DNA of 64,000 nucleotides from Opitutales bacterium. GTDB lineage: Bacteria; Verrucomicrobiota; Verrucomicrobiia; Opitutales; PNEW01. The position numbers were made by a program, and so were the translations under genes. Below are positions 4,284 through 21,860 of this stretch, piece after piece. The notes below the pieces were generated by a model. The model was not told the DNA's origin and made no database searches. It saw only the letters and a program-made list of their open reading frames with translations. The DNA lies in the NCBI GenBank assembly GCA_965197745.1, contig CBDANS010000005.1, forward strand, positions 445,562-509,561, in the 5' to 3' direction. The stretch's first letter is position 1. Every line of letters starts with the position of its first letter.

Positions 4284-4411
4284 GTGGAGTAGGCGTTAAT
4301 TGTTCTTATTCTATTGGGCCAGGTTCCGTCGCAGCCGCTAGTAGTAATAAATAATCCCAACAGTAGATAGAATAAGATTAAAGATAACGGTTATTTTAAG
4401 GTAATAAGATA

Positions 4412-4737
4412 ACGAAGACGAAGAGGTATACGGAAATTGACAACTATTATTTGCCATTGGAATAAAATTGAGATTATCGCACATACTTCTTAACGGCCAC
4501 GACGGAGCGTGGCCCTCCAGAATAATAAAAAATTGAGGACAATGCATCTTGGCTGTTGTTGTAATATATAAAACAGAAGAATAAAATGGAGGGACGTGAT
4601 CCATCGCGTCCGTTGAGAGGAACGAGTTCAAATGTCCCTAAATAATTACTCGATCTTCGTCTTCGTCTACGTCCGCGTTTTCGTCCCCGGGTGTTCACAG
4701 AAAGAGGCAATTCAAGGATAATTGGACGAAGACGAAG
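4412..4737. repeat. Composite REP-like repeat unit (about 330 bp), left of the IS110
   Basis: High identity with 5985-6262 and 19752-20155. Contains ACGGCCACGACGGAGCGTGGCCCTCCA, TGGAGGGACG..CGTCCG palindromes and (GACGAA)n/(TTCGTC)n arms. Confidence 0.9.
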
Positions 4738-4745
4738 CAATTGTG

Positions 4746-5678
4746 TCATGAAGCAAGAGCTAATTGATGTTTTTTAAGAAGGGACTGCAGATGAATAAGG
4801 AGTTTTCTCATGGCCGCAACGAGAGCACATTTGTAAGGCATTCCCCGATCGACTAACCTCTGCACATAAGGTTTGATCACGGGGTTATGTTGAGCCGCGG
4901 TGCGAGCAGCCATATAGAGACATTTTCTGACTTTGGCACGACCTCCTTTTATCGATCGCTTAGAATGGGTCTTGCCACTGTCACGATTATAGGGAGCCAG
5001 ACCGGCAAGAGCGACCAACTGATTGCGGCCCAGATGAGTCATTTCGCTCATATAAGCCAGGAGGGTCCAAGTCGTCACTTCACCGACTCCTTTGACTGAA
5101 GCGATAAGTTCGGCTTTCGCACGCAGTGGATCATTCTCGTTGATGAGCAATCGCAGCTGTTTGTCGATGCGATCGATTTCGTTCTCAACGAAACGGATCA
5201 TGCGTTGGATGGAAAGGTGGATGCTCTTGGGACTGTTCTGCAAGCGGTTCTTCTCGCGGCCAAGCTGTTCGCTCAGATGATGGCGTCGATCCAGTAAAGC
5301 AGTCATCTGTTGCTGTTCGGGTGTCGGGGGAGCTGTTGGGGACAACTGCTTTTGCTGAGCAAAGCGCAGCAATACCTTGGCATCGATCTTATCGGTCTTT
5401 GCACGGATGCCATCGCTCGTGGCGAAGGCCCGTACGCGCGCAGGATTAATCAGGCACACCACAATCTGCGCTTCATGCAAAGCGCTCAACAAGGCGCGCT
5501 CGTAGCCTCCTGTGGCTTCGCACACCACAAAGGGGGCATCCATCTTTCCTATGGCTTTGAGCAGTTCTTTGAGTCCCGACTTGTCGTTGCTTAGAGCGTA
5601 ACTTTGCTCTGCACTTTGCACTTGCAAGGTGTTTTTGGCTATATCTATGGCGATGAGGGTGTGTTTTTTTTCATTCAT
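4746..5678 (-). CDS. IS110-family DEDD transposase/bridge recombinase, intact ORF
   Basis: RuvC-like DEDD residues (IAIDIAK, CEATG, KTDKIDA) and a Tnp-domain catalytic Ser motif (GLAP..RDSG); 310 aa. Confidence 0.96.
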   Translation of the reverse strand: MNEKKHTLIAIDIAKNTLQVQSAEQSYALSNDKSGLKELLKAIGKMDAPFVVCEATGGYERALLSALHEAQIVVCLINPARVRAFATSDGIRAKTDKIDAKVLLRFAQQKQLSPTAPPTPEQQQMTALLDRRHHLSEQLGREKNRLQNSPKSIHLSIQRMIRFVENEIDRIDKQLRLLINENDPLRAKAELIASVKGVGEVTTWTLLAYMSEMTHLGRNQLVALAGLAPYNRDSGKTHSKRSIKGGRAKVRKCLYMAARTAAQHNPVIKPYVQRLVDRGMPYKCALVAAMRKLLIHLQSLLKKHQLALAS

Positions 5679-5970
5679 GGCTATCTCGGTCTTGTCAAGA
5701 TGAGCTCGCGGGGGTATAATCCGGGCTCTTTCAATTGTTTGAGATTAGCCAGGTTAGATCGGAGGTTCCCAGGCTTCGTCTTGAACTCCGCTAACGCGGG
5801 TTCCAGAGGCAGAATGAACTCTTCCGATTTGCTCCCGGCTCCTCTTATTAGGAGTCGGGAGTTCCTGGCACTCTCAACCGTAGACACTGTTGAAAGCTTT
5901 TTCCAGTCCTTCCTCCGACGTGTTACGATGACCCATTCTCGGAAGGACTCAAAAGGTTGTCTTATCATCG
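5679..5970 (-). ncRNA. Predicted bridge RNA of the IS110 element
   Basis: 5' hairpin 5832-5861. Target-binding loop 5758-5828 with guides UCUGCCUCU and AAGACGAAG. Donor-binding loop 5679-5750 with ACAAUUG and ACAAG. The 5' end is inferred from the junction promoter. Confidence 0.88.
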
Positions 5971-5984
5971 CGGGGTAACCTACA

Positions 5985-6262
5985 AGAGGCAGACGCAGAC
6001 GAAGAGGTATACGGGAAATGACATATATTAATTGCCACGGGAATAAAATTGAGATTTTCGATCAAAATTCTTAACGGCCACGACGGAGCGTGGCCCTCCA
6101 GAATAATAAAAAATTGAGGACAATGCATCTTGTCCGTTGTTGTAATATATAAAACAGAAGAATAAAATGGAGGGACGTGCTCCGTCACGTCCGCTGAGGA
6201 GGGTCAAGTTCAAATGTCCCCTTATAAGTACTCAATCTTCGTTTTCGTCTTCGTCTGCCTCT
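5985..6262. repeat. Second tandem unit of the composite REP-like repeat, right of the IS110
   Basis: Near-identical to the unit at 4412 onward and in the same orientation. Confidence 0.9.
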
Positions 6263-6290
6263 TTGTGTGATCACCGACAAAGGTCGATGC

Positions 6291-6782
6291 TTATTTCTCT
6301 TGAGCCATGATGAGGCAGACTGCATGTGTCGCGATCCCATCACCCCTTCCGATTTCACCGATCTTTTCGTTGGTCGTCGCCTTTATCCCGAGAGCCGATT
6401 CATCTACCCCCAAGGTATTTGAGAGTTTTGTTTTCATCTTCTTGATATAAGGAGTTATTTGGGGGTTTTCGGCAATTACCGTTATATCAGCATTAGCAAG
6501 ATAGTAACCATGTGCCTTAATCTCTTCTATCGCTTTATTTAATATCTTCTGCGAATCAATATCCTTAATGCCTGAATCGGTATTGGGAAAATAATAACCG
6601 ATATCAGGAAGACCCGCGGCACCCAGTATGGCATCAGCGAGAGCATGGGTTAGACAGTCTGCGTCAGAATGCCCGTCGAGGCCTTTCTCAAAAGGGATTT
6701 TTATTCCTCCAAGGATGAGTTTTCTTCCCGAAACGAGTGGGTGAATATCGTAACCGCAACCGATGCGAAAGGGTAAAGTCAT
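6291..6782 (-). CDS. ispF: 2-C-methyl-D-erythritol 2,4-cyclodiphosphate synthase
   Basis: RIGCGYDIH, GHSDAD and KATTNE motifs. Confidence 0.96.
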   Translation of the reverse strand: MTLPFRIGCGYDIHPLVSGRKLILGGIKIPFEKGLDGHSDADCLTHALADAILGAAGLPDIGYYFPNTDSGIKDIDSQKILNKAIEEIKAHGYYLANADITVIAENPQITPYIKKMKTKLSNTLGVDESALGIKATTNEKIGEIGRGDGIATHAVCLIMAQEK

Positions 6783-19740: not shown

Positions 19741-19751
19741 GCGGTATGGGG

Positions 19752-20155
19752 GATAAATCTAAGATTATCGCTCAAACTTCATAACGGCCACGACAACGCG
19801 TGGCCCTCCAGGATAAAAAAATGGAGGGCCACGCGTTGTCGTGGCCGTCGTTGTAATATATAAAACAGGAGAATAAAATGGAGGGACGCGCATAGCCTTG
19901 ACGATAGCTGATCGCGTCCGTTGAGATGGTCGAGTTCAAAGAGTCCCAAATAATTACTCGATCTTCGTCTACGTCCGAGTCTTCGTCCCCGGGTGATCGC
20001 AGATAGAGGCAAATCAAGGGTAATTGGACGAAGACGAAGAGGCAGACGAAGACGAAGAAGTATACGGGAAATGACAAATTTTTGCTATGAGAATAAAATT
20101 GAGATTATCGATCAAACTTCCTAGCGGCCACGACGGAGCGTGGCCCTCCAGGAAA
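19752..20155. repeat. IS-free copy of the composite REP-like repeat (about 1.2 units)
   Basis: Homologous to the 4412-6262 array. Includes the perfect inverted pair ACGGCCACGACAACGCGTGGCCCTCCA / TGGAGGGCCACGCGTTGTCGTGGCCGT. Lies between convergent genes. Confidence 0.9.
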
Positions 20156-20162
20156 ATAAACC

Positions 20163-21860
20163 TTACCACCCCAACATGGCATTGAGACGGGCGAGCATCA
20201 TATTACCTACAGCGTCAAAGGAGAACTTTTCTTTAATAGTGTCAGCGGCATTGAGAGCAAGTTTTCGATATAGATTTTCATCTTCAAATAATTTTTTCAA
20301 TTGGTAGGCGGCATGATCCGTATCCGCATTGGCCCATACCTGGCCGGCACGGTAATGTCCCGCATCGTTTTCAAGTTTCACCAATTCATAGTTCACGGGA
20401 CATCCATTATTCTCATCAATGAATTCAGCAGGAGCAGACCAGTTGGTACTCACTACCGGTTTTTGAAGATACATCGCTTCCGCAAGTCCCAGACCGAATC
20501 CCTCAGATCGATGCAGGGATACAAAAACGTCGCAACATTTTATCAATTCATAGATTTGTTGACGTTCTAAAGTTACATTCAAGATAGAGATATTCGACAT
20601 AGTTGATACCTGCTCTTTTAAATTAATAAAATCCGGAAATTCATCTTTTGCGTTGTGCACTTTAATCAGGAGGTGAACGGAGCTATTATCGGAAAATTCC
20701 TTGAGAAATGAATTTATAGCGGCATGCGGATTTTTGCGATCCTGATTGGATCCATAATCATACATGCACAGGAAAATAAAGGTCTTTTCTGGAATATTAA
20801 AGTCACTCCTCTCGGTCTTACCCTCAATTTCGAATTGAACAGGGTGCGGCATAGTGAGAACGGGCACCGGTGATTTCATCATGATCGCATCCCGCGCGAA
20901 ATCTGAGGGAGTCCATATCTCTTCTACGTAATCGAAATTCCTAATATATTCATCAGGGAATTCGCTCAATTCCCAGGCCCAATAGCCAATATTAAGTTTC
21001 TTTTCGAATATCTTGTGGCCGTGAACTCGTGAGATGTTATCCATGGATCCGGGATCAATATGAAATATATTAACGGGATACGAATTGTCCGTTGTTAATT
21101 GATCCGATAAAATATTTTTATCGTAAGGTGAGGCGCAGTAAGTCCTTAATTCGTTGAGATTGGTTGCGATGCCCACTTTGCGGGCAGCTTTCGCGGCGAG
21201 ACGAGCTCCCTCCGTAATTCCGTTCTGATGCTTGAAATGAGAGGCAATATTAATCCCCAATGTCCTATGGTGATCGAGAAATGAAGTTGCCGGCAAAAAA
21301 ACTTTCGTCGCGTTGAAATCAATTAAACCGAAATCGCCAATTGATATTTTAGATATTTTTAAACGTCTCTTCCCTGTTTCGTTAATATATTTATTAAGGA
21401 ATTTGCGTATCACTTCAGGCATTATAAAATAAAAATAGCTTCTCCCGAGACTGGCGAAGAAGGATCTCAATCTGACTTTATTTAAGCGTATTTTAATTTG
21501 ATTATTATTTTTCTTCAGAATCCTACCGGGATAGCTGAGTTTATACGAAAATTTACCGTAATTGAATAAAGTACAAGTTTTTAACCGTTTATGATTTAAA
21601 TATACGGAAAAAGAAAAAGACTTTGCTTTTTTACCGGAGAGAAGCTCTGAAGTTAAGCCGTAGAATCCTTCTATCGTAATGTCGCCGTCCAGGCCTGGAG
21701 GGATAAAGACCACAGCTATATTATCGGGAATCCACCGTCCTTTAAAGAGATCTCCGGTATCTGTTTTAAAACCCAGGTAGAGCGGTGCTTTAGACTCTAT
21801 CTTTCGAGTCGTGATATTTATATGGCGATATCCATCCAGGTATGAATTTTTAAGTTTCAT
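20163..21860 (-). CDS. GT4-family glycosyltransferase
   Basis: GYWAWEL, RKNP and [16 protein letters not shown] motifs; AT-rich. Confidence 0.88.

Follow-up and report, generated by a model that had tools for sequence, protein, structure and literature searches.

The 64,000-nt window analysed here, from the Opitutales bacterium assembly GCA_965197745.1 (contig CBDANS010000005.1), carries on the minus strand, from 5986 to 4736, one mobile element that is very probably an intact IS110-group member of the IS110 family, with an IS621-type bridge RNA in its left end programmed against a dispersed host repeat. The element measures 1251 bp from core to core (1249 bp with one core), starts with CT-TGTAGG and finishes with ACAATTG-CT. 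A single open reading frame (ORF) lies between non-coding ends of 306 nt on the left and 8 nt on the right (stop codon to right CT). This is the layout of the IS110 group, with a long left end, a very short right end, CT at both borders and no terminal inverted repeats. Every defining feature of an IS110-group bridge RNA that could be checked in the sequence was found. The target TCTGCCT-CT-TCGTCTT and the donor ACAATTG-CT-TGTAG, both reconstructed in a preliminary description of this DNA, were confirmed in the sequence. The element and its surroundings comprise the following features.

4736..5986, minus strand: whole IS110-group element, CT to CT (four copies of the exact span and an empty paralogous site)
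5987..5993, minus strand: left target (LT) TCTGCCT, host DNA (same at 4/4 copies)
5985..5986, minus strand: left CT core (copies and empty site)
4746..5678, minus strand: recombinase gene, 310 aa, D12/E54/D96/D99/S234 (Pfam, NCBIfam and PDB alignment)
4738..4744, minus strand: left donor (LD) ACAATTG, the right end of the element, directly 3' of the stop codon (sequence and copies)
4736..4737, minus strand: right CT core (copies and empty site)
4729..4735, minus strand: right target (RT) TCGTCTT, host DNA (TCGTC at 4/4 copies, TT at 2/4)
20026..20055, minus strand: unoccupied host 30-bp repeat copy, with the 14-nt target at 20033-20046 (paralogous to the occupied site)

Borders, copies and recombinase

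The borders could be fixed to the base because an empty paralogous repeat copy, in an array of the window at 20026-20055, reads through without the element as GTCTGCCT-CT-TCGTCTTCGTCCAATTA, with a single CT. Four full copies are present in the genome, and the borders are the same in the other three. Two copies are identical, one has a single-nucleotide polymorphism (SNP) and one has two SNPs, and the 310-aa ORF is kept in all four. On the left, 4/4 copies read TCTGCCT-CT, and on the right CT-TCGTC, after which the flank continues as TTCGTCC in two copies and as CTCCCAGG in the other two. The preliminary description had proposed a comparison of the insertion sites of other copies; all four lie at the guide-matching sequence TCTGCCT-CT-TCGTC. 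These four copies with 0-2 SNPs and intact ORFs suggest recent mobility, and on the same grounds the element is probably active. In sequencing run X1, the element was recovered as a single 1256-nt unitig (4731-5986) with a word depth of 73, against 12-17 for the flanking contigs; this depth is not a copy number, and the unitig agrees with a multi-copy element having these borders.

The ORF encodes a recombinase with matches to both IS110 domains in Pfam (PF01548 DEDD_Tnp_IS110, 2.4e-23; PF02371 Transposase_20, 2.6e-19) and to the NCBIfam equivalog NF033542, 'IS110 family RNA-guided transposase', at 209.6 bits (cut-off 140). Against the PDB, residues 8/9-300 matched ISCro4 best (9t56, 2.7e-38), together with IS621 (8wt6, 6.7e-38), to which the identity is about one-third by a manual count on the alignment match line. 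The catalytic residues of IS621 are D11, E60, D102, D105 and S241 (PMC11208158), and D12, E54, D96, D99 and S234 align with these positions; S234-G235 is also conserved. As the preliminary description had it, the ORF is intact, at 310 aa with its catalytic residues kept in 4/4 copies. Protein relatives of 306-317 aa are very numerous, with 5787 of 8000 scored candidates at E <= 1e-30. The closest relative among the matches listed was 90% identical, and the protein search also listed others at 55-90% identity, while a metagenome scan returned only relatives at 33-44%. In run X3, one of three whole-organism runs, a contig lacked 7 nt at 5610, within the recombinase gene and close to its start; such a deletion would put the gene out of frame in the one or more copies of that strain.

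Bridge RNA, guides and host repeat

RNA positions are counted from 5861, and the bridge-RNA-equivalent stretch covers the 183 nt of the left end that adjoin the gene (5861-5679). The minimum free energy (MFE) fold of this stretch consisted of a 5' hairpin followed by two stem/internal-loop/stem-loop modules, which agrees with the hairpin at 5832-5861 and the two internal loops proposed earlier. The guide strings reported in the preliminary description were all found at their places on the minus strand, within the following features.

5832..5861, minus strand: 5' stem-loop, RNA nt 1-30 (MFE fold)
5758..5828, minus strand: target-binding loop module, RNA nt 34-104, with base stem, internal loop and top stem-loop (MFE fold; RNAalifold helices 1 and 2)
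5805..5813, minus strand: left target guide (LTG) UCUGCCUCU, RNA nt 49-57, 9/9 to LT TCTGCCT (5993-5987) plus core CT (5986-5985)
5774..5782, minus strand: right target guide (RTG) AAGACGAAG, RNA nt 80-88, reverse complement of CT (4737-4736) plus TCGTCTT (4735-4729), 9/9
5772..5773, minus strand: putative target-loop handshake bases CC, RNA nt 89-90 (sequence read by the PMC11208158 rule)
5679..5750, minus strand: donor-binding loop module, RNA nt 112-183, with a base stem that reaches the start codon (MFE fold; RNAalifold helices 3 and 4)
5732..5738, minus strand: left donor guide (LDG) ACAAUUG, RNA nt 124-130, 7/7 to the right end ACAATTG (4744-4738)
5691..5699, minus strand: putative right donor guide (RDG) CUUGACAAG, RNA nt 163-171 (pairing compared with IS621)
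5689..5690, minus strand: putative donor-loop handshake bases AC, RNA nt 172-173 (sequence read by the PMC11208158 rule)

In the first loop, the 5' side holds the LTG and the 3' side the RTG, and the LDG and RDG are placed likewise in the second. At all four copies, the first loop matched its site with 9/9 bases of the LTG and 7/7 of the RTG, the latter being RNA nt 82-88 (GACGAAG), which also matched at 9/10 copies of a sister element described below. The long right-target match claimed earlier therefore holds at 9 nt for this copy and one other, and its general length is 7 nt rather than 9.

For the right donor, the preliminary description had taken ACAAG as a guide for CTTGT. This string is present (5695-5691, RNA nt 167-171) and is the reverse complement of CT plus TGT, but it is better read as part of a 9-nt discontiguous guide, because CUUGACAAG pairs as its counterpart in IS621 does: it can pair donor C8-T12, and in addition A13-G14 via CU if UG is skipped, which gives 5 contiguous pairs plus 2. 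In IS621, the RDG AUUUGCAAG pairs C8-T12 and A13-T14 of the donor, with two U's flipped out (PMC11208158). Donor position 14 is G here and T in IS621, and the matching RNA base is C here and A in IS621. According to the handshake rule stated for IS621, pairing with the non-cognate DNA favours strand exchange, and pairing with the cognate DNA prevents it (PMC11208158). C89 can pair donor G7 but not target T7, and A172 can pair target T7 but not donor G7. The assignments of the handshake bases, of the RDG and of the boundary between LDG and core are predictions from this comparison with IS621.

The probability of finding such strings by chance was estimated with 20000 dinucleotide-preserving shuffles of the 306-nt left end. 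The left-target 9-mer occurred in 21 shuffles, the right-target 9-mer in 173, the right-target 7-mer in 1365, the left-donor 7-mer in 182 and ACAAG in 5417; all four guide strings together, with the right target scored as the 7-mer, occurred in 0/20000.

Structure was conserved as well as sequence. The 307-nt stretch made of the left end and the core T folded better than 100/100 shuffles (z = -3.6). A MAFFT alignment, made with no structural input, comprised 10 sequences: the RNAs of the window and sister elements and those of eight distant relatives. Its RNAalifold consensus contained both base stems and both top stems, and of the 25 pairs, 19 showed a change on both sides in one sequence or more. 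Paired cells reached 84.8% compared to 69.1% in column shuffles (0/500 reached the observed value), and fell to 27-50% when the partners were slid by 1-3 columns. These compensatory changes back the RNA architecture. Furthermore, a covariance model built on the MAFFT/RNAalifold alignment (R2) found the RNA upstream of 111/150 relatives, which bears out the covariance search of IS110 non-coding ends that had been suggested. Matches were obtained in 36/70 genome loci, ten of the 36 being seeds or identical to seeds, and in 75/80 metagenome loci (76 matches), none of which were seeds. All matches lay on the recombinase strand, and 97/109 match ends fell within -5 to +40 nt of the inferred start codon. 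A search of Rfam 15 over 4300-6400 gave no match at E up to 1, and thus no bridge-RNA match. Fold, guide positions and covariation all agree with the IS621 bridge-RNA architecture and its CT core, as the preliminary description had proposed.

In one metagenome contig, the best match of the RNA model lay downstream of the recombinase gene (L121:1171-1323) and might represent the left end of another, tandem element. An earlier covariance model built on the window and sister RNAs only (R1) was too narrow, with 6 matches in 70 loci, one of them weak and antisense, and the alignment derived from it (A3) was polluted by antisense partial matches of the 5' hairpin and was not used. Projecting the window structure onto the MAFFT alignment caused a one-column register slip in the target-loop base stem, and the RNAalifold consensus was used instead. 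Two of the copies, L003 (C7:1406272-1407534) and L004 (C7:2015229-2016491), have a common C>U at RNA nt 98, by which a G-C pair of the target-loop base stem becomes G·U. They also have ~115 bp of identical right flank (TCGTCCTCCCAGGTATTTACAAT...), which is either another dispersed repeat or DNA carried in duplication. At locus L005 (C7:1370745-1373809), a solitary fragment at C7:1372245-1372309 matches nt 1-65 of the left end at 80% identity, with GAGAAUGGG among the matching part, and looks like the remnant of a related element.

The 14-mer target TCTGCCT-CT-TCGTC has 16 unoccupied copies in the genome in addition to the 4 occupied ones, while a reversed-pattern control had 0 copies and the number expected from length is 0.03. 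The full 16-mer that a 9-nt RTG could read is present at 7/16 empty sites. All empty 14-mers lie inside a pyrimidine-rich dispersed host repeat of ~30 bp, with the consensus TCGTCTTCGTCTGCCTCTTCGTCTTCGTCC, which is hexamer-periodic (TCGTCT TCGTCT GCCTCT TCGTCT TCGTCC) and has the target at its centre. The repeat is found in the window at 5985-6008 and 20026-20055, both on the minus strand. Arrays of at least 4 units number 33 in the genome versus none in a shuffled genome. The stop-to-stop frame over an array has a median of 66 aa and is shorter than 130 aa in 31/33 arrays; since the covering frames are this short, the arrays are essentially non-coding. An inverted partner array lies within 500 bp of 8/33 arrays, and some of these pairs bound repeat units of ~250-280 bp. 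A GCCTCC variant is common (10 units) and would place CC at the core position. The preliminary description had called the target a repetitive extragenic palindrome (REP). That it is a dispersed host repeat proved right, but it is not a palindromic REP, because its consensus strand is without any A and cannot be self-complementary.

REP-like hairpins, that is, imperfect palindromes, do occur nearby and are not the site; GGCCACG...CGTGGCC and GGCCACGCTCCGTCGTGGCC are examples. Such hairpins are part of the neighbouring ~280-bp units, recur at dozens of genomic positions and are found in flanks of the metagenome-assembled genome (MAG) described in the next section as well. The element sits between two tandem repeat units of ~280 bp that are 88% identical (4440-4735 and 5987-6290; also ~19750-20350). 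Similar TCGTCT arrays stand beside several element copies in the MAG.

Guides and insertion sites change together

The closest genome relative of the element is a sister in the Opitutales MAG OY829953.1, with 10 copies (loci L006-L015) at 79-84% aa identity. It has the same donor ends, RTG, LDG and RDG, and it uses the same host repeat family. The sister RNA is 96% identical to the window RNA over 183 nt. Its 14 differences comprise eight in the 5' hairpin, three scattered in loops and bulges, one that breaks a top-stem pair, and three in the LTG, which reads UCAUCGUCU and so differs at 3/9 positions. The left flanks of the sister copies are TCATCGT-CT (4 copies), TCATCGC-CT (5 copies) and TCTTCGT-CT (1 copy); at the TCATCGC-CT flanks, the guide U would face a bottom-strand G in a U·G wobble. 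Compared with the element of the window, the sister thus has its insertion site shifted by one hexamer along the repeat, to TCATCG(T/C)-CT. The RTG is unchanged, and the right flank is CT-TCGTC in 9/10 copies. Because the LTG and the left flank both differ while the RTG and right flank stay the same, guide and site have changed together in the sister with the rest unchanged. The sister target occurs at 10 occupied sites and 1 empty site in its own genome and at 7 empty sites in the genome studied here, and the target of the window element has 2 copies in the MAG. A more distant element from Babeliales (33% identity, 3 copies) is inserted at an unrelated target, GCTC-CT-CAGGA, and its loop has an LTG and an RTG that match this site, (C)GCUC-CU and UCCUG-AG.

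Two tests extended this comparison to the family. In the first, a fixed rule placed the border at the most upstream CTTGTA in the range of 180-340 nt from the start codon and compared the 9-nt flank to the element's own left end with <=1 mismatch; it was usable in 56/150 loci, which represent 53 distinct left ends. Cognate matches were found in 18/53 cases versus 48/2710 for non-cognate combinations, a 19-fold excess. In the second, anchored on the loop columns of the covariance model, 42 of 110 distinct matches were eligible, 38 being without a CT-ending 9-mer in the columns extracted and 30 without a usable junction in the available DNA. Here, 17/42 cognate combinations matched versus 7/1718 non-cognate ones, an excess of ~100-fold, and the window and sister elements are among the 17. 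A preliminary flank test on 24 elements picked by eye (12/24 versus 25/550) was superseded by these fixed-rule tests.

Competing readings and comparison with known systems

The mechanism that we propose is taken from IS621, as described in published reports (Durrant et al. 2024, PMC11208160; Hiraizumi et al. 2024, PMC11208158; Hiraizumi et al. 2026, PMC13626964; Xie et al. 2026, preprint). The left end would be transcribed, the first loop would specify the 14-nt target TCTGCCT-CT-TCGTC, and the second would specify the joined element ends ACAATTG-CT-TGTAG of a presumed circle. By analogy with IS621, a recombinase tetramer would hold both loops and cut after the CT core via a phosphoserine intermediate, and the ensuing strand exchange would be helped by C89 and A172.

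Several points weigh against an intact, programmed bridge RNA. The LDG pairs neither core base, with RNA AA opposite DNA CT, where the IS621 LDG pairs C8, and of each pair of handshake bases a single one can pair, the second finding no match. In the sister RNA, the top stem of the target loop contains an A·C mismatch, and the left end here extends a further 123 nt upstream of the RNA-equivalent region. The structure that was scored came from the same alignment, which favours structure somewhat; the slid controls nevertheless argue for a real pairing signal. No own-flank match within 1 mismatch was found in 35/53 cases under the fixed rule and in 25/42 in the model-anchored test, misses that are probably due mostly to the crude border rule and to contig ends. 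As for expression and mobility, a scan of the linear locus for sigma-70-type consensus sites returned none on the element strand and two on the opposite strand. Joining the right and left ends gives only TTGCTT-N17-TAGGTT, 6/12 by eye and under the scan threshold; the Babeliales junction has the same geometry with TTGACT-N17-TATGTT (by eye). The circle-junction 14-mer is absent from the assembly, and Logan contigs of four DNA runs showed no joint at the element borders and no circle junction, the joints listed in them stemming from flanking repeats; being contigs only, they do not bear on excision. No RNA run was listed as containing the element.

One promoter-like site deserves separate mention: at 5692-5720 on the plus strand, inside the donor-loop region, TTGTCA-17-TATAAT is a near-consensus sigma-70-like sequence (11/12). 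It would drive antisense transcription across the bridge RNA and, with about one such site per shuffle, may be due to chance.

The element might therefore be a genuine IS110 with a bridge-RNA-like left end that is now a silent or crippled passenger, for want of a working promoter, through the LDG/core mismatch or through the long 5' extension. The lack of a promoter-like site on its strand, the weak junction promoter, the AA in place of CU after the LDG, the missing circle junction and the 7-nt deletion in run X3 all point this way. We nonetheless consider it improbable. Four copies at four loci differ by only 0-2 SNPs and all keep the 310-aa ORF with every catalytic residue, the sister has the same AA after its LDG and yet has 10 copies, and the promoter consensus used is that of E. 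coli, which need not apply to this host. A second alternative is that the flank and end sequences repeated inside the element function at the DNA level, as sub-terminal protein-binding repeats or as products of homology-driven events, and not as RNA guides. The evidence presented here is all DNA sequence, and a low-complexity host repeat eases short matches, as the frequency of the right-target 7-mer in shuffles illustrates. However, the matches lie in the unpaired strands of two helices kept by compensatory changes, which is a signature of RNA structure. In addition, the two guides have opposite polarity relative to the target, one sense and one antisense, which is also the case in the RNA-DNA duplexes of IS621 seen by cryo-EM (PMC11208158), and the protein is about one-third identical to IS621, which was shown to need its RNA (PMC11208160). 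This alternative is thus highly improbable. Finally, that the guide matches are mere coincidence, for which only the low complexity of the target speaks, has a negligible probability and is refuted at the level of sequence statistics by the shuffles, by the joint change of guide and flank in the sister and by the excess of cognate over non-cognate matches in both family tests. Taken together, these results argue for an intact IS110-group element with an IS621-type bridge RNA.

The extra 5' part of the left end forms a feature of its own.

5862..5984, minus strand: left end upstream of the bridge-RNA-equivalent region, 123 nt, starting with the right donor TGTAGG and containing two hairpins (MFE fold)

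The left end of IS621 has 191 bp, and the RNA begins ~14 nt into it (PMC11208160). One hairpin of the extra part, ~45-53 nt from the core, has a conserved loop motif, CCGAGAAUGGGUC...CGUCGGAGG. The motif and a compensated outer stem are common to the sister (L006:1195-1317) and to two deltaproteobacterial relatives (L041 ~1255-1330 and L057 ~1250-1330), and the outer stem is fully compensated, with UCCUUCC/GGAAGGA here versus GCCGCC/GGCGGC in L057. Among the other relatives retrieved, the hairpin is missing: loci L016-L165 gave 3 matches to the motif, of which one is unrelated. A speculative reading, which we hold to be doubtful, is that 5984-5862 is a third functional module rather than a spacer, specific to a subclade spanning Opitutales and deltaproteobacterial elements. 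Such a module could be the 5' domain of a longer bridge RNA, or a regulator gating expression, excision or recombinase loading.

Among known systems, the IS1111 group has the same protein family and carries a two-loop guide RNA (seekRNA or bridge RNA) 3' of the gene. Placement in this group was considered and rejected: the RNA would lie downstream, in a long right end, and the RNA model matches upstream. Because only 8 nt follow the stop codon, the element belongs to the IS110 group and not to IS1111. Thousands of such IS110 orthologues are known. Bridge recombinases of the ISCro4/IS622 type (PDB 9t56) belong to the same family and include the best PDB match, and the element is a distant orthologue of them. 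Recombinases of this type have been used in genome engineering (Perry et al. 2025, preprint 10.1101/2025.05.14.653916).

The closest parallel in architecture is IS621 (PDB 8wt6). Both recombinases have the same two domains and the same DEDD and Ser residues, and both elements carry the RNA in the left end just upstream of the gene, in the order 5' hairpin, target loop, donor loop. In the 177-nt RNA of IS621, the target loop spans nt 34-98, the LTG 50-58, the RTG 77-80, the LDG 123-130 and the RDG 157-165, with handshake bases at 81-82 and 166-167 (PMC11208158). The guide positions found here (49-57, 80-88, 124-130 and 163-171) are within a few nt of these and nearly superimposable. A CT core, an LTG of 9 nt that includes the core, a discontiguous RDG of 9 nt and a target in a dispersed intergenic host repeat are likewise common to both. 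The donor ends are similar too: the IS621 donor is ACAGTAT-CT-TGTAT, of which only the right half, CT-TGTAT, follows from published pairings, and the donor here is ACAATTG-CT-TGTAG.

In contrast to IS621, the protein has 310 aa instead of 326 and is about one-third identical, the RTG has 7-9 nt instead of 4, the LDG stops short of the core, just one handshake base pairs in each loop, and the left end has 306 nt instead of 191, including the extra structured 123 nt. The target is a hexamer repeat read on its pyrimidine strand and not a palindromic REP. Longer RTGs have been described in some IS110 orthologues (Durrant et al. 2024, PMC11208160), and a longer right-target guide engineered into IS621 improved specificity and efficiency (PMC11208160, PMC11208158); the recombinase described here has a naturally long one (7-9 nt). 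The element also marks a ~30-bp dispersed repeat family in Opitutales-like genomes as landing sites. Together with its sister, it offers an unusually tidy natural example, in which a common scaffold with a three-base guide difference goes with correspondingly different positions of the same host repeat in two related genomes, and this pair is a ready-made orthogonal set for studying reprogramming rules in a recombinase so far removed from IS621. Compared with the systems above, nothing in the element is new in kind; its smaller protein, longer RTG, lack of LDG-core pairing and structured 5' extension are variation within the family.

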